A stretch of DNA of 64,000 nucleotides from Clostridium sp. (lineage in GTDB: Bacteria > Bacillota > Clostridia > TANB77 > CAG-508): positions 17,999-81,998 of the forward strand of contig JBQMXM010000002.1 of assembly GCA_052174015.1 (NCBI GenBank), written 5' to 3'. This document shows positions 8,940-57,593 of this stretch, piece by piece (positions within the stretch are counted from its first letter, which is position 1; each line of letters starts with the position of its first letter). The notes beneath the pieces were generated by a model. It searched no databases and was not told the origin of the DNA. It was given only the letters and a program-made list of their open reading frames with translations. The position numbers and the translations under genes were made by a program.

Positions 8940-10559
8940 TTAATATAATGCTAACTTATTATTTAATTCTTCAAGTGTTGTTTTTTGTTCTAATATCTTT
9001 TGTATTCCATCTATTACTAATGGCTTATAATTTCCATTTAAAGCTATTTTTTTGATTTCAATTGTTGATTTATCTTCCATTATAGCTTGTTTTATTTCTT
9101 CATCTATATTTAATACTTCATAACATGCAATTCTATCTAAATATCCTGTATAATTACATAGTTTACATCCTACTTTTTCAAATGTTTCTTTTCCTTTAAA
9201 ATCTAATGTTACACCATATTTTTCTGCAATTTGTGTCATTATTTCTTTTTCTTCTTTTGTAAATTCTCTTTTTTTAGCACAATGTGGACATATTTGTCTT
9301 ACTAAACGTTGTGAAACTGAAGTTGCAAGTGTACTTGCAATATCATAATTAGATATTCCCATTTTTCTAAGTCTTGTTATAACTTCTATTGCATCAATTG
9401 TGTGAATTGTTGATAATACATAATGTCCTGTTTGTCCTGATTGCATAGCAATTTCAGCTGTTTCTAAATCCCTAATTTCTCCTACTAGAATAATATCAGG
9501 GTCTTGTCTTAATACGGTTCTTAAAGAATCAGCAAATGATGTGTTTTCATCTATTTCAATTTGGTTTATTCCATCTACTCTAATTTCAACTGGATCTTCA
9601 ATTGTAGTTATATTTATTTCAGGTCTATTTAAATAATCTAAAATTGAATATAGTGTTGTTGTTTTACCTTCTCCTGTTGGTGCTGCAATTACTGTAATAC
9701 TATTTCTTTTATTAAAACTCTTTTTAAGTATTTTTTCATCACGTGGAAATCCTAAATCAAATATATCTCTTATTCCTTTATCTTTTTTAAGCAACCTTAA
9801 AACTATTTTTTCTCCGTGTACATTTTTTTGTGAAGATACACGAATATTATAATCTGGATATATTATAATTCTTCCATCTTGAGAAGTTTTCTTTTCTTGA
9901 TACATATTAGAAATTGCTTTAATTCTTCCAATTATATTCCCTTGTTTTTTATTACTAATACTTGAAACTGTAATTAATTCTCCATCAATTCTATATCTTA
10001 TTCTAACTTCTTTTTCTAATGGCTCAATATGTATATCTGAAGCTCTTTTCTTCATTCCAGTTTTGATTATAGTGTCAATTAATGTAGTTACATCACTATT
10101 TTCTGTAATATTTACATTATCTGAATGTTCTAACCCATCAATTATTTTAAGTATATTTCTTCCAAATGTATAATATACTTCTATATTATATCCTTTTGAA
10201 AGTGCAAGTAGCTCTACTTTTTTAACTAATTTACTATCTTGTGGGTCTGCAAACGCAACCTTTAACTTATTACCTACAATATCAAATGGTAATACTTTGT
10301 CTTGTTTTATTAAATCTACTGAATAAAATTCTTTTATATCTATATTAACATCATTCATTGTAATATCTATACCTGGAAATCCAAAAATATCTGAAGTTAC
10401 TTCTAATAATGTTCTTCTATCTGTTAAATCTAATATTTCTAATATCTCTACTAACTTATATTCTGGATGTTGTTTTTGATAATCTAATGCTTTTCTTATC
10501 TCAACATCTGTTATTATTCCTTTTTTTATCAGTTCTAAACCTATTGGTACATTTGCCAT
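8940..10559 (-). CDS. pilB: Type IV pilus assembly ATPase (PilB/GspE family).
   Basis: Walker A motif APTGEGKTTTLYS, a GspE-type N-terminal domain, and a C-terminal tetracysteine CPHC...CKLC zinc motif. Confidence 0.85.
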   Translation of the reverse strand: MANVPIGLELIKKGIITDVEIRKALDYQKQHPEYKLVEILEILDLTDRRTLLEVTSDIFGFPGIDITMNDVNIDIKEFYSVDLIKQDKVLPFDIVGNKLKVAFADPQDSKLVKKVELLALSKGYNIEVYYTFGRNILKIIDGLEHSDNVNITENSDVTTLIDTIIKTGMKKRASDIHIEPLEKEVRIRYRIDGELITVSSISNKKQGNIIGRIKAISNMYQEKKTSQDGRIIIYPDYNIRVSSQKNVHGEKIVLRLLKKDKGIRDIFDLGFPRDEKILKKSFNKRNSITVIAAPTGEGKTTTLYSILDYLNRPEINITTIEDPVEIRVDGINQIEIDENTSFADSLRTVLRQDPDIILVGEIRDLETAEIAMQSGQTGHYVLSTIHTIDAIEVITRLRKMGISNYDIASTLATSVSQRLVRQICPHCAKKREFTKEEKEIMTQIAEKYGVTLDFKGKETFEKVGCKLCNYTGYLDRIACYEVLNIDEEIKQAIMEDKSTIEIKKIALNGNYKPLVIDGIQKILEQKTTLEELNNKLALY

Positions 10560-10575
10560 ATCATTCTCCCTCTTT

Positions 10576-11787
10576 TTATTTATTTATATAATAATATACT
10601 AATCCTTTTGAAATATATGCTGCACCTGCTGGATCTCCATATTGAATATCTCTATACATTCTATATTTACTTGCAAGCATATATAATCCTATCATTTCTT
10701 TTGCCATATCTTTTTTTATCCAAGCACCTTTTTTTTCATTATCATATATTTCTGCAATCCTTTTATAATACAAAAACTTTGTTTGATCATTTTCTGATAA
10801 TGTTTGATAATCACTATTATTAGTCATTATATTTCTATCTTGTGCATCTTTATCTTTTTTAGGTATTAAATAATTATTACTATCAAATTCTACATCTCCT
10901 GAATTGTATACACCTCTAATTTTAGTTGGTTTATCATTTTCATCTAATGTACATATTCTAATTTTAGTATGTGGTGTTTTACCTAAATATTGTGTTGTTA
11001 AGATATTTTTAAAAGTTTGTATATATGAATCACCATATATGTGTTCCATAATATCTTTTATAATACCTGTCAATTCTTTTACATTATTAATATTATTTGG
11101 ATATGTTATTCTTGGTACATATACATAAGTTTCTTTTTTATCATTCAAATCTCCATTATATGCATCTCTTTTATTCATCATTAAGAATGTTGGAAAACTA
11201 CTTCCGTAATATATATTTTTTTCTAATTCTTCTCTTTCATTTGAATTTACTCTTCTAACTTTATAAGTATAACCATATCCTGTTTCTTTAACTACTTTAC
11301 AAAAGTCCATATATTCATTATTAGCTACTTCCCAAATTGAATGATAATTACTCTTATCAAGTCCTACCATTTTATAGTATCTTTGTATAATTAAATTTTT
11401 TCTTCTATCTCCTGTAGCTACTACTCGTTTTCCACTTTTTTTTATAGGAATATAATAATCTTGTTCATCTATTACAACTTTTAATATATTATCTTCTTGT
11501 TTTTCTGCAGATTTTATAGTTATTGATACATTTGTATTTTTTTCTTCATATTTATATGGATATGTTGCTGTTGGAACTACTTTTTCTATACCTTTTTCTT
11601 CTATTTCTCCAAGTAATACTTGTTTTAATTCATTTTTTCTATTATTATGATACATTTGTATATTCAATTCATTAATATGTTTTAACATGTTAAATGCTAC
11701 AAATATTGTTATTGCTAAAATTATAACCGTCATAGTTATATCTATACCTGTTACACCTTTTTTTCCTCTAATCTTTTCTTTTAACAT
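10576..11787 (-). CDS. Large (403 aa) prepilin-type protein with a canonical class III signal (KKG|VTGIDITMTVIILAI, Asp at +5).
   Basis: Short basic leader ending in Gly, then a hydrophobic helix with acidic +5. It lies between the prepilin peptidase and PilB genes. Confidence 0.7.
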   Translation of the reverse strand: MLKEKIRGKKGVTGIDITMTVIILAITIFVAFNMLKHINELNIQMYHNNRKNELKQVLLGEIEEKGIEKVVPTATYPYKYEEKNTNVSITIKSAEKQEDNILKVVIDEQDYYIPIKKSGKRVVATGDRRKNLIIQRYYKMVGLDKSNYHSIWEVANNEYMDFCKVVKETGYGYTYKVRRVNSNEREELEKNIYYGSSFPTFLMMNKRDAYNGDLNDKKETYVYVPRITYPNNINNVKELTGIIKDIMEHIYGDSYIQTFKNILTTQYLGKTPHTKIRICTLDENDKPTKIRGVYNSGDVEFDSNNYLIPKKDKDAQDRNIMTNNSDYQTLSENDQTKFLYYKRIAEIYDNEKKGAWIKKDMAKEMIGLYMLASKYRMYRDIQYGDPAGAAYISKGLVYYYINK

Positions 11788-11798
11788 GTTTTCCCCTT

Positions 11799-12743
11799 CT
11801 ATATATTTAAAAAGTTTGATAAAATCATTATAAATATTGTTATATACATTAATATTAATACAAATGATGTCATTGTTTTTCTTTGTTCTAATTCTGAATA
11901 TTTTAATCCTGTTAATTTTGGTAATAATACATCTTTAAGTTTTGTTTCTTTAGCTTTTTCTTTTTTATATGTTTTTAATTTAGGGTCTACTTCAAATTTT
12001 TTATCTAATTTTTCTTTTAAATCTATAATTTGTAAAATAGAAAGTATTTCATACATAATATATATAATTAATGTTATACCTATTATTCCTGCCATTATTG
12101 TTGGCTCTAAATATATTGTTAATATTAATATTGTTGATAATAGGTCTATTAAATATATTGTTTGTTTATTTTTATTTCTCACATTATATACTTGAATTAT
12201 TGTTAAAATCATTAATATAAATAAATATATTATTGATAAATATACACTAAATGTTTCTCCATTTTGTAAGTAAACATATTTTATAAATACATTTATACCT
12301 GCAAACATTGTTCCAAACACCATTAATCCTTTATCAATTACTCCTGTATCTTGATCTATCTTTGCTGTTAAATATATATATGTAAATATAAATGGGAATG
12401 AAATTAAACTAATCACCTTATATATCAATAACCCTTCTATTTTAAATATGTTTAATGAGTTAAAGAATAATAAGAATATTATTCCTGTAAATATCTCTGT
12501 CAAAAAATATTTACTTGATATTTTTTCTTTACAGTGTCTACATTTTCCTCCTAAAAATATGTATGATAATATTGGAAACAAATCTTTTGCTCCTAATTTT
12601 CCATTACATACTGGACAAAATGATCTTTCTTTTACAATATCTAAATTTCTTGGAATTCTATGTCTTGCTAATGTGTAAAAACTTCCAAAAAATGTTCCCA
12701 TTATGAAAACTAAAAAATTAATTATTATTATATATACTTCCAT
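11799..12743 (-). CDS. pilD: Prepilin peptidase (PilD/ComC, A24 family) with a long Lys-rich C-terminal extension.
   Basis: N-terminal zinc-binding domain (CPVCNGKL...GGKCRHC) after the first TM segment, then multi-TM regions with an IDQDTGVIDKG aspartate motif. The second catalytic-Asp motif is not obvious. Confidence 0.7.
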   Translation of the reverse strand: MEVYIIIINFLVFIMGTFFGSFYTLARHRIPRNLDIVKERSFCPVCNGKLGAKDLFPILSYIFLGGKCRHCKEKISSKYFLTEIFTGIIFLLFFNSLNIFKIEGLLIYKVISLISFPFIFTYIYLTAKIDQDTGVIDKGLMVFGTMFAGINVFIKYVYLQNGETFSVYLSIIYLFILMILTIIQVYNVRNKNKQTIYLIDLLSTILILTIYLEPTIMAGIIGITLIIYIMYEILSILQIIDLKEKLDKKFEVDPKLKTYKKEKAKETKLKDVLLPKLTGLKYSELEQRKTMTSFVLILMYITIFIMILSNFLNI

Positions 12744-35760: not shown

Positions 35761-36005
35761 TATATTGTTTCCTCCTAACTATTGGCTTAAATGAATGAAA
35801 ACATCTAAGCTTGGTCGTTTTATATTATTTATAATTTATAACTTGTTATAATCTATTGTTTCTATTGTTACATTTTAATATTAAATATTTTAATACTATA
35901 TAATATATTACTATATATAATAGAAGATAAAATTCATTCAATATTAATTATGTTATTTATCATTTGTTTTATAAACTGTTATTAAACACTATATATTAAA
36001 GTATA

Positions 36006-36329
36006 TTAAAGTTTAATTTCTATTTCTACACCTGCTGGCATATCTAATTTTTCTAAACTGTTTATTGTTGTTTGAGTTGGATATAATATATCTATAACTC
36101 TTTTATGTGTTCTAATTTCAAATTGTTCTCTTGAATCTTTGTGTTTATGTGGAGAACGAATTACAGTTATAACTTCTCTACGTGTTGGAAGTGGAATAGG
36201 ACCTGAAACTTGTGCTCCTGTTTTTTTAGCTGTTTCTACTATTCTTTCAGCAGACTGATCTAAAATAACATTGTCATAAGCTTTTAATCTAATTCTTACT
36301 CTTTTACTTCCTTTATTATTTGTTGCCAT
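36006..36329 (-). CDS. rpsJ: 30S ribosomal protein S10.
   Basis: [39 protein letters not shown]. Confidence 0.95.
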
Positions 36330-36509
36330 GTTTCCTCCTTAAATATTTTTTGTCTAGCAACGTATGTACTCGGGTGTTCTATTATTAGTTTTTAAAAATA
36401 AGCTAACAATAGCTTTTACATATTCGCTATGGTCTATGCCACAACTTCTCCATAAGAGTTCCCTACATCTAGGTGTAGCCACATCTTACTTCATCGCTTG
36501 ACTTAAATA

Positions 36510-36538
36510 AGTATACCATGCTTTAATATATGTGTCAA
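36510..36538 (-). promoter_or_regulatory. Near-consensus sigma-70 promoter of the S10 operon (TTGACA, 17 nt spacer, TATACT), followed by a roughly 170-nt relatively GC-rich structured leader at 36330..36505.
   Basis: Minus strand reads TTGACAcatatattaaagcatggTATACT. The leader contains the hairpin CTACAcctagaTGTAG and is the only GC-enriched non-coding block near rpsJ. Confidence 0.7.
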
Positions 36539-36661
36539 TATAAAAAGCAAAAGAATTTTAAAACTTTTTAAAACTTTTTTTAGTTATTAATTTAGTTATT
36601 AAAATATAAATTCTTTTGCTCATATTTATTATATTTTTTATATATTTTTCATTATATTTTT

Positions 36662-37060
36662 TTATTGTAATTGCCTTGTTAATATTTCATTATATTCTTG
36701 AACTGTTAATTCTAATTTTTTTTCATAATCATTATATTTCCTTTTAACTTCATTTTTAGCACTATCTACTTCATATATCTTATTTAATTCTTTTTTTACA
36801 TATTCTTCTTTAGTATCTTGTAAATCATCACCTTTTGCTTTTTGTTCTAATGTATATGCATAAATATAATATTGTATAGTTTCTTTTAATTCTTCTTTTT
36901 CTGCTGATTGAGATATATTATTTCCTTCTTGTATTAACTTTGTATTGTATGTATATGTTATAGTAATTGTTGCTAATATAAATAGTATTACAATTGTTAT
37001 TACAAGTGATATAAGTGTAACTCCTTTTTTATTTGTTTTTATTTTTTCATTTATTTTCAT
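36662..37060 (-). CDS. Small (132 aa) prepilin-like protein, KKG|VTLISLVITIVILFILA, with a non-acidic +5 (Ser). It is a candidate pilin.
   Basis: Short basic leader ending in Gly followed by a 20-residue hydrophobic helix. Size fits a pilin subunit. Confidence 0.5.
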   Translation of the reverse strand: MKINEKIKTNKKGVTLISLVITIVILFILATITITYTYNTKLIQEGNNISQSAEKEELKETIQYYIYAYTLEQKAKGDDLQDTKEEYVKKELNKIYEVDSAKNEVKRKYNDYEKKLELTVQEYNEILTRQLQ

Positions 37061-37068
37061 ATTTACCC

Positions 37069-38226
37069 CTATTTTTTATATAATACTGTTCTAAATCCCC
37101 AATATTCACTTTTTTGATTATCTGGATGTACTGTTGCTTTTGACGGACTTTGTGGAATTGTTGCATTACCACCTCTTAATACTCTCATATATTTAGGTAC
37201 ATTTTGTTCTTCATTTTCATTTCTGTTTCCTTGTTGTGTTTGTGTATGTATTTCAGTTGTCCATTCTTTAACATTACCTTTAATATCTGCAATACCATTA
37301 AATATATCTGTAGAATCAGCTCCTGTTTTTCCTAATGCATTTGTTTGATTTGCATTTTCTTGCGATACTTTTCTCTTATTTGTTGTATCTATCCAATTTA
37401 ACATTGTAAACCATCCATAACTTGTCATTATAGAAGTCTCCATATCAGTATATTTTAATAATTTTGCTGTATTTACTGCTACATTTTGTGCATCATTATA
37501 TGAAATATTAACCCATGGATATACTCCTTTTTTAGATGAGGCTACAAAATATTTTTTTCCATCTAATTCTGCAAGACCTTGTGAACTTTCATATCTTGAA
37601 ACATAAAACCCTTTATATCTTCCAACACTATTTGTTAATGTATTTGATGATTGATTTGTATCTGAAAACTTATTATCATTTGTTGGATTTCCATACATTT
37701 GTCCATTTTCTACAGGTATCCATACATATTGATTTCCATTTTTATCTTCAATTACAAATCCTGTTTCTATTTTAGTATTTTCTACATGCTTAAATCCTAC
37801 AGGAATATATGGTTCATTTGCTTTTGCAACTTTTATATTATTTACTTCTATTGTTTTTTCTGCATATTTTCCATTTTTTCCATATGTAGCAAACTTATAT
37901 TTATCATTTACATTTACTTGATATGTTACTTGATTTCCATTTACCTTTGTTCCATTTGGTAATAATATATAGTTAATTCCTTCAGGGTCAGCTGTTTTAG
38001 CATTTACTGTTAAAACTACTTTTTCTACATTTGGACTTTCTGTATCTTTTGTTATTTCTAATACAGGCTCAGCTTTTTGCTCTGCATCTACTTGTACTTT
38101 TTCTTTGCTTTTACCTAAATTATTTACAATAACTGTCCCTAATATTATAAATATTATTAAAACTAATATTCCACTAACTATCATTATTGTTTTTTTGTTT
38201 AAAAATTTCTTCTTTTTATAATACAT
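37069..38226 (-). CDS. Membrane-anchored protein with a C-terminal FGE-sulfatase (SUMF1-like, formylglycine-generating-enzyme fold) domain.
   Basis: N-terminal signal anchor. The C-terminal segments YPWVNISYNDAQNVA, IKGNVKEWTTE, RVLRGGNA and WGFRTV match the conserved blocks of the FGE/SUMF1 domain family. Confidence 0.6.
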   Translation of the reverse strand: MYYKKKKFLNKKTIMIVSGILVLIIFIILGTVIVNNLGKSKEKVQVDAEQKAEPVLEITKDTESPNVEKVVLTVNAKTADPEGINYILLPNGTKVNGNQVTYQVNVNDKYKFATYGKNGKYAEKTIEVNNIKVAKANEPYIPVGFKHVENTKIETGFVIEDKNGNQYVWIPVENGQMYGNPTNDNKFSDTNQSSNTLTNSVGRYKGFYVSRYESSQGLAELDGKKYFVASSKKGVYPWVNISYNDAQNVAVNTAKLLKYTDMETSIMTSYGWFTMLNWIDTTNKRKVSQENANQTNALGKTGADSTDIFNGIADIKGNVKEWTTEIHTQTQQGNRNENEEQNVPKYMRVLRGGNATIPQSPSKATVHPDNQKSEYWGFRTVLYKK

Positions 38227-38262
38227 TTCTTCTCCTTATATTCAATCTAAGAAAACTTATTA

Positions 38263-38988
38263 TTAAATTATCTGTTTAACTGTTTTAAAAACTATATCTA
38301 CCATAACATCTAAATCTTGCTCTCGTTCTATACTTGTTAATGCTTCATCTGTATAATTTGCATCTACAACAGTAAGTATACATGCTGCTTTCCTATTTAA
38401 GAATTCAGCTGTTTTAAATAGTGCAAAACTCTCCATTTCGCACCCTAACACATTATGTTTTTTAGGTATCCTATTATAATATAATTTTTTATCTATTGTA
38501 TATTTATCAAAACATTCACTACAAGCAATATTGCCTTTTTTTACAATACTATCATATTCTTTTTTACCTATTTCATATATTTTTTGCGTTAATTTATAAT
38601 CAGGATATGATATATATGAACTTACCCCTGTTAAATTTTTAGCAAATTCACTTTCTGTATAACTACTTGCTACTACTAATATATCTCTTAATTTTAATAT
38701 TTCTTGATTGCTTCCCATAGAACCAACTCTGATTATTATTTCAACATCATATTCATTATATAATTCATAAGAATATATTCCCATACTTGGAATTCCCATT
38801 CCTGAGCCCATAACTGTTACTTCTTTTCCAACATATTCACCTGTATATGCAAGCATTCCTCTTACATCACTTACAAGTCTAGCATTTTGTAAATATTTTT
38901 TAGCTATCAATTCTGCTCTTTTAGGATCTCCAGGCATTATAACTATTTTAGCTATATCTTCTTTTTTAGCATTTATATGTATTGACAT
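38263..38988 (-). CDS. deoD: Purine nucleoside phosphorylase, DeoD type.
   Basis: IVIMPGDPKRAELIA, RGMLAYTG, GMGIPS and IIRVGSMGS are PNP/UDP family-1 motifs. Confidence 0.85.
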   Translation of the reverse strand: MSIHINAKKEDIAKIVIMPGDPKRAELIAKKYLQNARLVSDVRGMLAYTGEYVGKEVTVMGSGMGIPSMGIYSYELYNEYDVEIIIRVGSMGSNQEILKLRDILVVASSYTESEFAKNLTGVSSYISYPDYKLTQKIYEIGKKEYDSIVKKGNIACSECFDKYTIDKKLYYNRIPKKHNVLGCEMESFALFKTAEFLNRKAACILTVVDANYTDEALTSIEREQDLDVMVDIVFKTVKQII

Positions 38989-39221
38989 ACATTTATCCTT
39001 TCACATATATTTTAATATATTTATATCATTATATACAAACATAAATAATTTTTAAACATCTTTTATATATTTTTATCATATTTGTAAAATATATATTAAA
39101 AGGTATATCAATTATTTAATTAATACACCTTTATCATTCTATTATTTATTGTTTATTATTTATTGTTATTTTAGATTATTAATTTAATTACTAATAATTA
39201 TACTTATACAGTTATATATAA

Positions 39222-39755
39222 TTATATACCATAATTCATGTCCCATAACTCTATATCATTATTTTTTAATGATTTTTTTACGTCTATTATTCTTTGATTC
39301 GAAGAACCTCTAAATCTTAATCTTTTATCTGCTAAATCTATAACAAATTTTCCATCTACTAATACATCTATATTATCTATTATATCTTTAGTTGTTGATA
39401 ATTCTTTATACATTCCATCTAATATTTCTTTATCAAAAACATATCCTGTATAACACCAGATATCTTTTTGTGGTAATTCTTTTCTTACTCTTTTTACAAG
39501 TGAAGCTACTTGTTTTTGATTATCTGGATGTAATGGTTCTCCACCAAGTAAACTTAAACCTTTTATATATGAACTAGATAATAATTTAATTATATGGTCT
39601 TCTGTTTCTTTTGTATATTCTTTTCCAAAATTGAAATCCCATGCTTCATAATTAAAGCATCCTTTACAGTAATGAGTACAACCTGAAACAAATAATGATA
39701 CTCTTATTCCTTCTCCGTTTGCTACATCACAGTTTTTTATATTTGCATAGTTCAT
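39222..39755 (-). CDS. nrdG: Anaerobic ribonucleoside-triphosphate reductase activating protein (radical SAM).
   Basis: CDVANGEGIRVSLFVSGCTHYCKGC motif. It lies immediately downstream of nrdD. Confidence 0.9.
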   Translation of the reverse strand: MNYANIKNCDVANGEGIRVSLFVSGCTHYCKGCFNYEAWDFNFGKEYTKETEDHIIKLLSSSYIKGLSLLGGEPLHPDNQKQVASLVKRVRKELPQKDIWCYTGYVFDKEILDGMYKELSTTKDIIDNIDVLVDGKFVIDLADKRLRFRGSSNQRIIDVKKSLKNNDIELWDMNYGI

Positions 39756-43655: not shown

Positions 43656-45515
43656 TTATTTTTTAAAGTGTTTTAAGTTTAAAGATGCAACTATAACTTC
43701 TGATATTTCTTCTATATTTTCTATATTTTTTATCTTTCCCTTATTATATCCAAAAAATGTTTTAAATATTGCATTTTCTTTTGATATTTCTTTTGGTTGT
43801 ATCCATTTTATATATTGTTCATATCTTAATAAATTTTTCTTAATATTAATTCCTTTTAATGTGAATCCATATTCATTTATCTTTTTAGCTATTTTAGCTA
43901 ATATATATGTTAATATAAATACTAAGATTGATATTTTAATATCAATATATTTAAATAATGTAAACAATGTTAATGGTAAAATTAATATCAATATTATTGA
44001 AAAGTCAGTCCTATGTCTTCTTCTACTATATATTCCTTTTTTAGTTAACATTACATTTTCATAGTCTATCTGTTTATGTATTTCATCTATTATTTTTGAA
44101 GAATATTTTCTAAACATTTTTTCTAAGTCTGAATATTCTACAAAATTAACATTATTTACATCTGCTCTATATATTTTTTCTAATATATATTTATCTATAT
44201 AGTCTAATTGTTGTAATTCTTTTTCTGTTTTATCTAATATATATACACCTTTCTTTTCAAATTGTATATAGTTATATTCATTTAATTTTACGAGTATTGC
44301 AGTTACTAAATTTTTTATATCTAATATGTTATTATACAATGTGCTTGTATTTAATATATATACTAATAATAGGTTGTTTCCTAATTTATTATTTTTTGTT
44401 TTCCTTAAATCTTTTTCAAAATTTATTCTCTTCTTATTTTTAAGCCCATTTATAATATCTAAAATATAGTATAAGTATTGTAATATAATTAATACATAAA
44501 GTGCATATGTTAAATATTTCCTATAAACATATTCATTATAGTTTCTAGCTTTTTTATGCTCTAAGAATTTTTTGAATGTTTCTTTTTCTACTTTTTCAAT
44601 CTCTAAAACATTACCCATTACTATTTTTTCAAAATCTTTTCCATATTTTTCATTAATTTGATTTTTTTCAAAAATTAAGTACATTTTACCATTATTATTT
44701 GGTGGAAAATTATATACTTGTAAGTTAAATTGATTATCTTTTAATTTTAATGTATTACTTGGTAATGACATAAAGAAATTAGCAAATTTCCTATTTTCAA
44801 TACTATTTTTAAATTTAACTTTAAGATTATACCTATTTATCCATTTAGGACTTTCTACTATAAGGTTTTGATTAGAGTTTTGCCACATCTTTGTTGAAAT
44901 TGGCATTTTTAAAGCATAATAGTTATCTGAATATACTCCAACTAGTCTTTTAGTTGTATATGTAATTTCATAACTTAAATATTTTGGATTTTTTTCAAAT
45001 TGAATCTTATCTCCACCTTCAATTACTTTTAATTCTTCTTTTTTAAATAATGTATTTCCAAAAACTTTAATATTTATTGGTGAAAGCTCCTTATCATTTA
45101 TCTCCTTATATACATCTACTATTTTAGTTAAATTCTTCTCAAATACTATTTTTTCTTTTACATCTATTCTTCCATCTTCTAATATTTCAAGTGTAGTTTC
45201 TTGATAATCTATTCCATCAATGTATTTTTGTTTTGGTAATATTATTAATAATATTGTTAATATAATTATTAATACAATATACATCCTTTTAAAAATCTTG
45301 TTTGAATTTAATACTACTTTAATATTATCTAAAATTTTATTTATTTTTTTCTTTTTAGCTATTTCTTTGCGAATCTTTTTTCTCTCTAAAATATCACTTT
45401 TAGTTTCTCTAGTTTTTTTAACTTTTTCTTCTTTTTCTTTTGCTTGTATTTTAGTAGTTTTTAATTCTTTATTTTTTTCTTTGTTCTTTTCTTTTTTTCT
45501 ATTCCATTTTATCAT
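43656..45515 (-). CDS. Large Lys-rich membrane protein of unknown function (DUF2207-like architecture: N-terminal TM, extracytoplasmic domain, C-terminal TM pair).
   Basis: Hydrophobicity pattern only, with low-confidence family resemblance. Its start overlaps the stop of the upstream Fic gene by 4 bp (ATGA). Confidence 0.35.
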   Translation of the reverse strand: MIKWNRKKEKNKEKNKELKTTKIQAKEKEEKVKKTRETKSDILERKKIRKEIAKKKKINKILDNIKVVLNSNKIFKRMYIVLIIILTILLIILPKQKYIDGIDYQETTLEILEDGRIDVKEKIVFEKNLTKIVDVYKEINDKELSPINIKVFGNTLFKKEELKVIEGGDKIQFEKNPKYLSYEITYTTKRLVGVYSDNYYALKMPISTKMWQNSNQNLIVESPKWINRYNLKVKFKNSIENRKFANFFMSLPSNTLKLKDNQFNLQVYNFPPNNNGKMYLIFEKNQINEKYGKDFEKIVMGNVLEIEKVEKETFKKFLEHKKARNYNEYVYRKYLTYALYVLIILQYLYYILDIINGLKNKKRINFEKDLRKTKNNKLGNNLLLVYILNTSTLYNNILDIKNLVTAILVKLNEYNYIQFEKKGVYILDKTEKELQQLDYIDKYILEKIYRADVNNVNFVEYSDLEKMFRKYSSKIIDEIHKQIDYENVMLTKKGIYSRRRHRTDFSIILILILPLTLFTLFKYIDIKISILVFILTYILAKIAKKINEYGFTLKGINIKKNLLRYEQYIKWIQPKEISKENAIFKTFFGYNKGKIKNIENIEEISEVIVASLNLKHFKK

Positions 45516-46453
45516 CTTTCGTATAAACTCCTATAAACTATTTCATTTAATGTACTATTATCATATACAGATTTTTTCATTGCATTCATAAATTCTTCTG
45601 TAGGTATATTTTTAAGTGTAAATAAATATCCAAAAATATATGCTATTTCTCTAAAAACTTCTCTAGTTGCTCTACCATTTCCTTCTCTAAATGGATGTAA
45701 TACATTTAAGTCTGCTAAATATTTGGTAAGTAATCTTGCTAATTCTTGTTTTAGTTGTTTCTTTTTAATATTTATTTCTTTTTTCTTAAAATTAATCTTA
45801 TTCCTACTTAATATATTTTCATTTGCTACTAATAACTTAATAAATTCTGTATTCATTTCTTTAAATATATTTTCTGCTTGTTCTTGTATAAACATATGCC
45901 CTGCAAATACAAATGTATCTTTAGACATATTTACTGTTCTAAATTCTCCTGCAAATGAATATAGCTCATCAAACATTTTTTTATGTATTAACATATATCT
46001 TTCTACAGTTAATATACTTTCTAAGGTATCTTTTTTAAACTTAAATATTTTTTTACAATCATCACTATAGTCATACTCTAAAAATTCATTACGCATTTTT
46101 TCTCTTAAAATATACATCTTAAGCATAACTACTCTTTTTTCTACTTGTATTAAATGTTCTCTATCTTTTATGCCTAATTCATTTTTTAAGATGTTTGTAT
46201 TAGTATAACAATAATAGTCTTGTTCATTATCTATACTATCACTATTAAGTACATATACTTTATCTAAATCTATATCTATTTCTTTGCGTATATCTTCAAT
46301 TATTTTTTTAGTTCTTTTATGTCTTGCAATCTTCTTTTTTTTAATTAACTTTTTTGCACTTATTTTCCTTGTTTTTTTCTTATCCATAAACAACCAACCC
46401 AATTTATCAATTATATTATTATAATAATACAATAATATAATCAAAATATACAT
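45512..46453 (-). CDS. Fic-family protein (AMPylase-type Fido domain). The probable true start is the internal MDKKKTRK at about 46387.
   Basis: Canonical Fic motif HPFREGNGRATR near the C-terminus. No obvious [ST]xxxE[GN] auto-inhibitory motif was found. Confidence 0.75.
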   Translation of the reverse strand: MYILIILLYYYNNIIDKLGWLFMDKKKTRKISAKKLIKKKKIARHKRTKKIIEDIRKEIDIDLDKVYVLNSDSIDNEQDYYCYTNTNILKNELGIKDREHLIQVEKRVVMLKMYILREKMRNEFLEYDYSDDCKKIFKFKKDTLESILTVERYMLIHKKMFDELYSFAGEFRTVNMSKDTFVFAGHMFIQEQAENIFKEMNTEFIKLLVANENILSRNKINFKKKEINIKKKQLKQELARLLTKYLADLNVLHPFREGNGRATREVFREIAYIFGYLFTLKNIPTEEFMNAMKKSVYDNSTLNEIVYRSLYER

Positions 46454-46562: not shown

Positions 46563-48237
46563 TTAGTCTTTTATCTTCCATACACCTTGAGTTTGTTCTT
46601 CAATCATACTTGCATCTAAGTATACTACTGGTCTTAAATAACTCATTTCTGTAGCAATATTTATATAATCTAAATGTGCATCAAAAAGATAAGTTCCACT
46701 AATAAAATTTTCTCTTATAAGACGAACATAAGAATATATATAATTTGAATCTGCACTTATATAACGAGTAGAAAGCCAATAAGATCTTCCTTTAAAAATA
46801 TGATACTTCAATTTCATTTTATTTTCTTTTACTTTTGGATCTGTTACTAAATCTGCATCATAATTTTCTAAATTATACCTATCATTATTAAAGTACTGCT
46901 TATCTGAACTACTTCCATTATCGTTATAACTACTTAATGTTGGATAATATGATAAAGTTCTAAAAGCTGGATTCATATAATTAGAATTAAATTTTTTCTT
47001 TTCTTGTTCTGTAAAATCTGTATAATCTTCACCTTTCATTATTTTAACAATGTCTTCCATTGTCATGCTTCTTGCACCAGTCCCTATTATTGTTTTTATT
47101 TGTGTTTCAGTTTCTCCTGTATACTTATTACCTGTTTGGTATGTAGTAACAACTTGTTTAGCACCTTTTCCATATCCATATACGCTACACATTGAATGTA
47201 ATTCTTCTTCTGCATATAACCATCCTATTCCACCTTTTAATGTAAATAGACCCAAATATGTACCTGATACACCGATTAATAAGTCCTTTAGACATTACCT
47301 TTATTTGGTTGTTTGAATTAGAAATAACTATCCATTCATTGTGATTAGATTTAGCAGTTATTGTTTGTGTACCATATCCATTACCACCATTTCTTGCAGT
47401 ACCCTTATATGATGTATATGTAAGTTTTGATGTATTTGTTACACCTTTGGTTGGGTCATAAATTACAGTATCTCCTACTTGTGGTCTGTTTATAATAGAG
47501 TCTACAAATTTACCACTATATGCTATATATGTATAATCATATCTATTGTTTCTTTTTTCTTCTAAGAGGTTTAAACTTATTTTTTTAGAACTAGTATTAA
47601 TTTCTCTTACTCCAAATTCAAATTTTAATGTGTTTTCTAATAGGTTTGTATCTGAACCTATAAATGCTTCTGGTATATCTGAATTTTCCATTTCAGGATA
47701 TCTATATTTTAATCTATATACTTCATTTAATCTATTATATGTTTCTAAATATGTTTTAAATTTTTGATCTGTTATTCCACTTGTACTTATACTACTAGAA
47801 TCTAATTTTTTTTCTATTATAGCTAAGCTTTTTCCTATATTCTTTTTTTCTGTCTTATTTATTATTCTTAATTTTTTACCAACATTGTTTTCTACATTAT
47901 TATATGTATATTTTATATTATAGTCATATTCCATTATTACATTTGAATTATCATTATATTTTAATTCTGAAATGGTTAATGTTGCATCTTTTACTCCTTC
48001 AACTTTTTTTATTAATTCTAATTCTTGAAAAGGTTTATTAAAAAATTGATTTAGATTTGCATTTACTTTGTCTGCTTGTCCTAATTCTCTTTTTAATACA
48101 TCTTCTTTTTGTACTCCATTTAATATTAATGTTGTTACTAATGTAAGTACAGTTATTATTATAGTGAATGCTAAAATATATGATATTAATGTTGTTAGTG
48201 TTATACCTTTTCTATCTTTTAATCTTATGTTTTTCAT
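46563..48237 (-). pseudogene. Frameshifted paralog of the 212..1618 large prepilin-like protein. Two overlapping ORFs (47185..48237 and 46563..47255) need a -1 correction near 47274..47280 to give one protein of about 555 aa.
   Basis: N-terminal part has a prepilin-type leader (MKNIRLKDRKG|ITLTTL) and ...VGDTVIYDPTKGVTNTSKLTYTS...NQIKVMSKGLI. The second frame continues ...FTLKGGIGWLYAEEELH... and ends WKIKD. Both halves align colinearly with ORF 212..1618. Manual translation places the frame break in ttattaatcgg. Confidence 0.6.
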
Positions 48238-56873: not shown

Positions 56874-57593
56874 TTATGATTTTTTTGCTCTTAATGATAA
56901 TATAAGTGTTATTACTGCTGTTCCACCCATTGCAAGTATTAATAATACTGGTGCATCTTCAACTCCAGCTTTAGGAATTGATGTATCTTCTTTTGGTGTG
57001 CTTGGTTGTGTTGGCACTTGTGGTTGTGAAGGTACTTGTGGTGTATTTGGAGTTAATGGTGTTTGTGGTGTAACTCCTGAATTACCGATTGTAACTGATG
57101 TTGATATATCATTAATTTGAAATTTTTCTATACCATTTGAAGCACTTATACTTTTAAGTTCTATTTTAGCTGCTTGATTTTGATTTCCTGAACCTGAAGC
57201 TCCTTTTGTTTTAGCTTTAAATGATATTTGGAATATTTCTCCATCGTTTTTAATTATTTGTTGATGTGTTGCTGTTATTTTTTTATCAAAAGCATCATAA
57301 TTTACTTTCCAATCATTTTTACCTTCAATACTTGTATCTTGAATAACTTCAAATGCAGTTTCATCATATGCTAATGTTCCTGTTATTTGTGTAATTCCAC
57401 CTTGTGCTGCATCTATATTAGATAACTTAAATTGAACTGTAAATTCTCCACCTTCTTTTACACTTTGTGCACTTGGTGTTAATGTTGCAGTTGCTGTTGC
57501 TGCCTTAGCATTTATTGGTGCTAATACTAAAGCTAATAATGTTGTTATAAAAAATACTAGTTTAATTTTATTTGTAATATACTTTGTTTTCAT
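56874..57593 (-). CDS. Secreted surface protein. It has an N-terminal signal peptide, a beta-rich (cohesin/Ig-like?) domain, a Pro/Thr-rich linker, and a C-terminal hydrophobic anchor with a basic tail.
   Basis: MKTKYITNKIKLVFFITTLLALVLAPINAKA signal, a TPQTPLTPNTPQVPSQPQVPTQPSTP linker, and ...IPKAGVEDAPVLLILAMGGTAVITLILSLRAKKS, which is a cell-wall sorting-signal-like end without a canonical LPXTG. Confidence 0.55.
   Translation of the reverse strand: MKTKYITNKIKLVFFITTLLALVLAPINAKAATATATLTPSAQSVKEGGEFTVQFKLSNIDAAQGGITQITGTLAYDETAFEVIQDTSIEGKNDWKVNYDAFDKKITATHQQIIKNDGEIFQISFKAKTKGASGSGNQNQAAKIELKSISASNGIEKFQINDISTSVTIGNSGVTPQTPLTPNTPQVPSQPQVPTQPSTPKEDTSIPKAGVEDAPVLLILAMGGTAVITLILSLRAKKS

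Follow-up and report, generated by a model that had tools for sequence, protein, structure and literature searches.

We analyzed a 64,000-nucleotide stretch of a Clostridium sp. assembly (contig JBQMXM010000002.1, positions 17,999 to 81,998; hereafter the window), which has a G+C content of about 25% and carries almost all of its genes on the minus strand. Our subject was two adjacent genes encoding proteins of 385 and 132 amino acids. An earlier note had described them as a prepilin-like protein followed by a membrane-anchored protein with a formylglycine-generating enzyme (FGE)-sulfatase domain, forming a dedicated pair that matched no described system. We found that both belong to known kinds of surface binding or display proteins, and that they do not make up a new two-gene system.

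Both open reading frames (ORFs) are real, and the spacing of 8 nucleotides between them (37061-37068) was confirmed. The order given in the note was that of the plus strand, yet both genes lie on the minus strand and the 385-amino acid gene comes first. In the direction of transcription a deoD-type gene is followed, after a gap of 36 nucleotides, by the gene for the 385-amino acid protein, and this, after the 8 nucleotides, by the gene for the 132-amino acid protein, which has a Shine-Dalgarno-like AGGGG upstream of its start codon. Co-transcription of deoD and the 385-amino acid gene across the 36-nucleotide gap is probable. The pair had correctly been placed upstream of the S10 promoter: rpsJ (36329..36006, minus strand) lies approximately 330 nucleotides past the 132-amino acid gene, the gap between them holds the S10-operon promoter-like site, a strong site of the sigma-70-like type, and the rest of the S10 operon follows rpsJ. 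From deoD to rpsJ there was no site resembling an intrinsic terminator, so the operon boundaries were inferred. An Rfam scan of 35900-39300 gave no match at E <= 0.1. The ratio of non-synonymous to synonymous substitution rates (dN/dS) was 0.2-0.56 across both genes, which indicates that both are maintained; the 385-amino acid gene alone gave 0.21-0.38, and the value of 0.30 for the 132-amino acid gene indicates that this short gene, too, is still maintained. The features of the locus and of the remainder of the window are collected in Table 1.

Table 1. Features of the window discussed in the text. Numbers beginning with L denote homologous loci in other genomes; AF2, AlphaFold2; pLDDT, predicted local distance difference test score; VR, variable repeat and TR, template repeat of a diversity-generating retroelement (DGR).
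Feature	Coordinates	Strand	Basis
385-amino acid membrane-anchored FGE/C-type-lectin-fold protein gene, no Cys	37069..38226	-	ORF, PF03781, homologs, AF2
N-terminal signal anchor (residues 11-37) after Lys-rich, predicted cytoplasmic tail MYYKKKKFLNKK	38116..38196	-	AF2 helix; hydrophobic stretch conserved in orthologs
Immunoglobulin (Ig)-like/PKD-like beta-sandwich stalk (residues 55-128)	37843..38064	-	Seven strands, pLDDT >90; Foldseek PKD, Ig and macroglobulin domains
FGE/C-type-lectin-fold head (residues 130-385)	37072..37839	-	PF03781, profile PDB matches, Foldseek, BFVD
Segment equivalent to DGR VR (residues 347-383), not variable here	37078..37188	-	L054 alignment; no TR in 64 kb
132-amino acid pilin-like protein gene, carrier module only	36662..37060	-	ORF, N_methyl 20.7 bits, ComGC E 0.005, 596 relatives, AF2
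Class-III-like signal, Ser at +5	36953..37060	-	Sequence; PF07963 stretch 9-33; family consensus KGITLIALVITIIVLLILAGV
deoD-type purine nucleoside phosphorylase gene	38263..38988	-	L012/L013 equivalent matches PF01048; same upstream gene in L026
S10-operon promoter-like site, TTGACA-17-TATACT with TG	36510..36538	-	11/12 match, extended TG
Minimal type IV filament operon, four genes	7596..12743	-	Pfam
A24_N_bact prepilin-peptidase-like gene	11799..12743	-	E 3e-27
403-amino acid pilin-like gene, KKG/VTGID, Asp at +5	10576..11787	-	N-terminus
T2SSE ATPase gene	8940..10559	-	E 2.4e-99
T2SSF platform gene	7596..8924	-	E 1.6e-27
468-amino acid full-length modular pilin-like paralog, KG/ITLIALV..., C-terminal domain of unknown family	212..1618	-	Sequence comparison
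Frameshift-split paralog of the 468-amino acid gene, two overlapping ORFs	46563..48237	-	76-80% DNA repeats with 212..1618; BLASTP colinearity of both ORFs

The FGE-like protein

The 385-amino acid protein matched Pfam PF03781 (FGE-sulfatase) significantly and above the cut-off, with 31.7 bits against a gathering score of 23.3 (E = 1.6e-7), residues 220-381 aligning to positions 69-254 of the 255 in the profile. The four motifs on which the assignment to the FGE fold had been based were all present (YPWVNISYNDA at 236-246, GNVKEWT at 317-323, RVLRGG at 348-353 and WGFRTV at 376-381). The description of this protein as signal-anchored, with an FGE/SUMF1 fold in a non-sulfatase context, stood, but the domain size of about 200 amino acids did not, as the head spans about 255 amino acids in the AF2 model and the family alignment. 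This model, built from the family alignment with a pLDDT of 89.2, consists of a membrane helix, an Ig-like domain and an FGE/C-type-lectin head. From the positive-inside rule the topology is predicted to be N-in/C-out, and model and rule together suggest that the head is extracellular behind its membrane anchor.

Catalytic FGEs carry a Cu(I)-binding pair of cysteines after the RGGS motif (C336/C341 in the human enzyme). The 385-amino acid protein contains no cysteine at all, so that this pair is absent, and the ortholog alignment showed no conserved cysteine in the segment that matches it. Identity as a formylglycine-generating enzyme is excluded because of this lack of cysteine. For the DinB family, the iron domain of the EgtB/OvoA type, the protein gave no match in Pfam or NCBIfam at E <= 1. 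The neighbors of the gene are deoD, the pilin-like gene and rpsJ, and the other scanned genes of the window, within which a sulfatase context was looked for, are housekeeping or type IV filament genes.

The relatives of known structure point in the same direction. A search of the PDB with the family profile gave the putative lipoprotein 9myj_B (E = 2.5e-5), PorK/GldK (E of about 3e-5) and TvpA (2Y3C, E = 0.019), together with CalU17, ToxD and SUMF2; these are mostly non-catalytic scaffold or binding proteins with the FGE fold (PorK/GldK, TvpA, SUMF2). The profile was needed to reveal them, as a single-sequence search of the PDB with the head domain returned insignificant matches only. Foldseek placed CarF (5AOH, E = 1e-5) at the top for the model and also found ToxD (7spq). 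An active enzyme of the FGE/SUMF1/EgtB/PvdO type might be read from the PF03781 match itself and from the NCBI name of one homolog (P0084, 'SUMF1/EgtB/PvdO family nonheme iron enzyme'). However, with no cysteine, no DinB or iron-binding domain found, a domain predicted to lie outside the cell, deoD and rpsJ instead of sulfatases as neighbors and mostly non-catalytic proteins as the nearest structural relatives, we regard such an activity as extremely unlikely. We conclude that the 385-amino acid protein is a non-catalytic extracellular FGE/C-type-lectin-fold head on a membrane-anchored stalk. By analogy with cysteine-less members of the fold, its role may be to bind a ligand.

A homolog search covering 5.8 billion proteins found approximately 100 full-length homologs of 366-392 amino acids, two of them close (93% and 70% identity) and the rest at 35-42%, nearly all with PF03781. 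Their alignment showed a single conserved architecture, in which GN-x-x-EWT-x-E, R-G-G and W-G-F-R were invariant, along with a block ...GNQYVWIPV... / ...GFY-x-x-RYE. In the BFVD viral library the best matches were phage 'sulfatase-modifying factor enzyme-like' proteins. A phage origin of the two genes was considered and rejected: the 385-amino acid protein had no PHROGs match, the 132-amino acid protein had weak matches of unknown function, and the surrounding genes are housekeeping genes.

Loss of the catalytic cysteines from the FGE fold, together with a structural or binding role, is shared with pFGE/SUMF2 and with PorK/GldK/GldJ; among PDB sequences it was PorK/GldK and 9myj_B that matched the family profile best. 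The likeness extends over about 70 aligned residues. The window protein differs in coming from a monoderm member of the Clostridia and not from the eukaryotic endoplasmic reticulum or the type IX secretion system of Bacteroidota, and the window offers no type IX secretion context.

Retroelement-diversified relatives of the head

Scanning one genome per GTDB species gave at least 484 encoded relatives of the 385-amino acid protein, and the best 80 loci were inspected. All 80 kept loci came from metagenome-assembled genomes (MAGs) of uncultured Clostridia/Bacillota from gut or rumen, such as Candidatus Scatovivens. The best 22 are orthologs with a plain hydrophobic anchor, and where the contig is long the orthologs sit amid housekeeping genes (e.g., rpmA - FGE-like - pdp/aspS - NlpC/P60 - comEC). 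In the 58 more distant relatives the similarity is limited to the head, and 30 of them join this head to a KGITLIALVITIIVLLILAGV or KGISLIVLVITIIVIIILAG type of N-terminus (KGITLIALV-type), referred to below as the carrier.

At least two of these head-carrier fusions (L054 and L093) are targets of diversity-generating retroelements. The L054 element (5530-9119) is complete, with the target gene at 5530-6780, bAvd (E = 2e-17), a reverse transcriptase (RT; RVT_1, E = 1e-17) and a template repeat; comparison of this TR with the last 137 nucleotides of the target gave 24 mismatches, of which 23 were at TR adenines. A second TR/VR pair was found in L093 (5725-7312), with 20 of 23 mismatches at adenines and an adjoining RT that is only a remnant. 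At a third locus (L057, 2537-4573) Avd and RT genes lie beside an anchor-less FGE-like gene. No known class of DGR variable proteins is larger than that of the FGE-sulfatase-type C-type-lectin heads (PMC5758913), and nothing in the literature that we searched linked DGRs to type IV pilin-like carriers.

In BLASTP alignments the L054 VR falls on residues 347-383 of the window protein. A sensitive blastn of the 3' 360 nucleotides of the window gene against the 64 kb gave only short matches at chance level; the same approach, run within each fetched locus, did detect the TRs of L054 and L093. A tblastn with the L054 RT and Avd gave no match in the window at E <= 1. These searches rule out the window gene as a DGR target in cis. 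Compared with the 93% homolog, the 111 nucleotides equivalent to the VR carry one synonymous change, whereas the two 90-nucleotide bins just before them have 12-14 changes apiece. This segment is the most conserved part of the window gene; it is well kept in the 70% homolog, is moderately conserved across the orthologs and shows no variation in the other close relatives. The window gene is not diversified.

At one of the closely related loci (L012, 5892-5950) a scaffold gap of 59 N falls exactly inside the VR-equivalent segment, corresponding to nucleotides 1072-1116 of the window gene. We found no explanation for it; it could be chance, or assembly trouble arising from population heterogeneity.

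A retroelement in another part of the genome might also diversify the gene in trans, given that L054 and L093 are DGR targets with their VR at the homologous C-terminal position and that the L012 gap might reflect heterogeneity in the population. The lack of any TR, RT or Avd in the 64 kb, the single synonymous change in the segment next to bins with 12-14, and its conservation in the 70% homolog and across the orthologs leave this only a very slight probability. As a fixed protein, the window head can be compared with TvpA of Treponema denticola, from the CLec1/FGE-sulfatase class of DGR proteins. Alike are the fold, the surface exposure, predicted for the window protein, the C-terminal ...RGG...GFR stretch that forms the ligand-binding face, and the presence of DGR targets among the homologs (L054, L093). 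Unlike TvpA, the window gene lacks a neighboring TR, RT or Avd, and the segment corresponding to the VR is conserved instead of hypervariable; the window protein is anchored by a transmembrane helix and an Ig-like stalk, whereas TvpA is anchored by lipid. The sequence relation between the two is weak (profile E = 0.019).

The pilin-like protein and the type IV filament genes

The claim that the smaller protein has a prepilin-type N-terminus was supported, the call being marginal by hidden Markov model. Its sequence begins MKINEKIKTNKKG/VTLISLVITIVILFILATITI, a 13-residue basic leader to Gly13 followed by a hydrophobic helix, which would leave 119 amino acids in the mature protein, and in the motif KKG/VTLISLVITIVILF a Ser takes the place of the canonical Glu at +5. 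The N_methyl profile (PF07963) scored 20.7 bits over residues 9-33 against a cut-off of 21.2 (E = 2.9e-4). The best NCBIfam match was ComGC (E = 0.005, model positions 1-81 of 84), with 17 bits against a cut-off of 75. The AF2 model (pLDDT 88.5) shows a helix of about 70 residues (11-79), a second helix (84-95), three short strands and a terminal helix (120-131). The pilin fold was not confirmed because Foldseek gave no significant match: against the PDB the model returned no pilin, and nothing at E <= 0.001.

A word-indexed search found three homologs of the 132-amino acid protein, all with at least 83% identity; the context of each is deoD - FGE-like - pilin-like - S10, as in the window. An exhaustive phmmer search of 1.84 billion representatives extended these to 596 relatives, which match residues 2-117 or thereabouts, always at the N-terminus, in proteins of 74-791 amino acids. 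Among the best 150 of these relatives N_methyl was the commonest Pfam family (35 of 150 at E <= 0.001), and the modules found at their C-termini were of adhesin type (Glug, DUF6273, LRR_5, FGE-sulfatase, Big_2 and dockerin). G13, T15, L19 and T22 are near-invariant in this carrier family, as are the basic leader to Gly and the 20 or so hydrophobic residues. The +5 residue in the 30 fused relatives is A, V, S, L or T, and never E; these relatives gave no match to TIGR02532, and other pilin models remained below threshold.

Two loci bear on the shortness of the window protein. At the locus whose FGE-like gene is 70% identical to that of the window (L013), the first 153 amino acids of the downstream neighbor are 49% identical to the full-length 132-amino acid protein, and this neighbor then extends into a 'VGDTIIYDPTKG...KLTYTS' domain, which is shared with the 468-amino acid paralog in the window. 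The L026 neighbor is longer than 960 amino acids and carries the same 'VGDTIIYDPTKG...KLTYTS' domain behind an anchor that is ordinary and not pilin-like. From these longer neighbors it follows that what the window gene encodes is a modular surface protein reduced to its carrier module.

The earlier note had given the pair no other partners. This was wrong, as the window also holds the peptidase-like, ATPase and platform genes of the type IV filament operon and, in all, at least three other genes of the pilin-like kind. In the operon, the prepilin-peptidase-like protein has an N-terminal A24 domain only; the catalytic Peptidase_A24 model misses it even at E <= 1. The 468-amino acid family has more than 4,700 detectable members, with at least 13 paralogs in one Clostridium sp. 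MAG at NCBI, and some homologs are named by NCBI 'type II secretion system protein' or 'pilus assembly FimT family protein'. No Pfam family matched the C-terminal domain of this 468-amino acid family; the possibility that this domain is a variant of the FGE/C-type-lectin fold was unsupported (5.8% probability in hhalign against the FGE-like family).

An alternative that concerns only the nature of the small protein is that it, and the whole KGITLIALV-type family with it, are not type IV pilins but bitopic membrane or Sec-anchored surface proteins that merely resemble class III signals. This would agree with the missing Glu at +5 in all 30 fused relatives and in the window copies, the N_methyl score below the cut-off and the 35 of 150 relatives that reach E <= 0.001, the lack of a pilin among the Foldseek matches, and the peptidase-like gene without a recognizable catalytic domain. 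Some tip-located minor pilins, though, are known to lack Glu5 (GspK, PilX-type). The alternative also has to accommodate the nearly invariant leader and hydrophobic stretch, N_methyl as the top Pfam family among the relatives, the NCBI names of the paralogs, ComGC and prepilin-dependent pilin models as the best NCBIfam matches, the ATPase, platform and A24-type genes with a pilin-like gene inside their operon, and the long N-terminal helix of the model. We consider it unlikely.

ComGC-type small helical pilins are similar in size to the mature 119-amino acid protein, and likewise have a basic leader, a Gly, a hydrophobic helix and a largely helical head. The window protein is unlike them in its score (17 against 75 bits), in the Ser for Glu at +5 and in having no comG operon context, and its entire sequence is homologous to an N-terminal module found in modular proteins that are much longer.

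Three other features of the window were observed. Two genes come directly after the frameshifted pilin-like gene in the direction of transcription, one for a Fic/DOC-domain protein (E = 1.5e-11; 45512-46453, minus) and one for a 619-amino acid membrane protein without a family match (43656-45515, minus). At 56874-57593 (minus) a 239-amino acid secreted protein is encoded that has a signal peptide, a linker rich in Pro, Thr and Gln and, after IPKAG, a hydrophobic anchor at the C-terminus; judged by eye, it looks like a surface protein anchored to the cell wall by a sortase-type or similar route. The 5' leader of the S10 operon (36330-36505, minus) has a G+C content above its surroundings and a minimum free energy of -38.8 kcal/mol, a significantly more stable fold than that of shuffled controls (z = -2.9), and matched no Rfam family at E <= 0.1.

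Relationship between the two genes

The expectation that the two genes would be conserved together mostly failed. Apart from the three full-length homologs (at least 83% identity), the 132-amino acid protein had little counterpart at the 22 orthologous loci of the FGE-like gene: a pilin-like ORF lay within 6 kb in one of the 22 (L018), and in none did the FGE-like gene itself have a pilin-like N-terminus. Of these 22 genes, 13 lie after rpmA, about six after an addA-like helicase gene and one (L026) after deoD. The deoD context defines a subclade made up of the window, L007, L012, L013/L014 and L026, and a neighbor of the same surface-protein family is kept only there.

Nor was support found for a dedicated and undescribed pilin plus FGE-domain system. 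The link between pilin module and FGE head occurs as a fusion in 30 of the 58 distant relatives, and the architecture IPR012902-IPR005532 is already catalogued among modular pilins, with eight proteins in Dataset S1 of PMC8179133. The modular type IV pilins (PilB/PilC of S. sanguinis) resemble what we describe in that a pilin-type N-terminal carrier is grafted to a binding module, and the combination of pilin and SUMF/FGE is common in the distant relatives. They differ in that the modules of the window pair are on two polypeptides, the head having a plain anchor of its own, and in that the carrier family has no Glu5 and scores at or under the N_methyl threshold. A pilin module and a functional module stand on one polypeptide in those 30 relatives and in the window paralog at 212..1618, but not in the window pair.

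The genes could nevertheless form a functional unit, in the manner of a split modular pilin or tip adhesin, with the short pilin sitting in a type IV filament and recruiting or presenting the FGE-like head, which has a separate anchor; parallels would be PilA-PilC in S. sanguinis or the presentation of PilY1 by minor pilins. The genes are 8 nucleotides apart and probably co-transcribed, 30 of 58 distant relatives carry the two modules as a fusion (a Rosetta-stone argument), a neighbor of the surface-protein family is kept in the window/L007/L012, in L013/L014 and in L026, and type IV filament genes are present in the same window. However, 20 of the 22 orthologs and all loci of the rpmA and addA contexts have no such neighbor, and the carrier is fused to so many unrelated modules that its fusions say little about this pair. 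The head gene here precedes the pilin gene, whereas in the fusions the pilin part comes before the head; the FGE-like protein is held in the membrane by an anchor of its own; and the L026 neighbor is anchored in the ordinary way. On balance we find a functional unit of this kind rather improbable. The same holds, at least as strongly, for a more specific proposal, in which a pilin consisting of the carrier alone is incorporated into a minimal type IV filament that does not depend on Glu5, and there docks or presents the lectin head, as a non-covalent version of the DGR-hypermutated pilin-FGE fusions in sister Clostridia. If it were true, a split modular pilin would be a new way to arm type IV filaments in uncultured gut Clostridia.

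Our best explanation, which we hold with moderate confidence, is that the two genes encode a fixed, non-enzymatic lectin-fold surface binder and a truncated pilin-like carrier, the latter probably relying on the minimal type IV filament machinery, and that their adjacency is restricted to one lineage and does not reflect an obligate two-component system. The Lys-rich N-terminus and a single uncleaved membrane helix would anchor the 385-amino acid protein N-in/C-out, and the Ig-like stalk would hold out the head. The head keeps the scaffold motifs of the fold (GNVxEWT, RVxRGG, WGFR) with neither the Cu-binding cysteine pair nor a DinB/iron domain, and would be related to the FGE-type variable proteins that DGRs use as ligand-binding scaffolds, but fixed and not hypermutated. 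It would probably bind a glycan or protein on the surface of the host, food particles or other microbes in the gut. The 132-amino acid protein would be the N-terminal carrier module, with a class-III-type leader, a long hydrophobic and amphipathic helix and a small head, from which the window lineage appears to have lost the C-terminal domain that is still present in the neighbor gene at the locus of the 70% homolog. It is probably processed and handled by the type IV filament machinery 24 kb away. The adjacency itself would then reflect that, in one subclade, two genes for surface-displayed proteins are transcribed together behind deoD.

Several points weigh against this explanation. The pilin assignment of the small protein is weak, given an N_methyl score just under the gathering score, no Glu at +5 in the family as a whole and no pilin fold match, and the results above for TIGR02532 in the fused relatives and for the catalytic domain of the peptidase-like protein count on the same side. 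The binding role of the 385-amino acid protein is drawn by analogy with cysteine-less proteins of the FGE/C-type-lectin fold. Our view of gene neighborhoods is that of the best 80 loci among the 484 or more relatives and, as the neighbor is kept in L013 and L026, a functional link within that subclade is conceivable.

The significance of this explanation is mainly corrective. The pipeline label 'SUMF1/EgtB/PvdO family nonheme iron enzyme' here covers a cysteine-free surface protein of lectin fold, and what had been taken for a new two-gene system comes down to two surface-display proteins of known kinds. The part possibly worth following up lies outside the coordinates of the pair, in the abundant Glu5-less carriers and the DGR-diversified carrier-FGE fusions. 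The uncultured, low-GC Clostridia of gut and rumen have a very large repertoire of such pilin-like carriers, with hundreds to thousands of relatives, fused to adhesin-type heads that include the FGE-like one. Because some of the carrier-head fusions are diversified by DGRs, a combination for which we found no link in the literature searched, they could provide these Clostridia with a route to vary the binding specificity of their surface.

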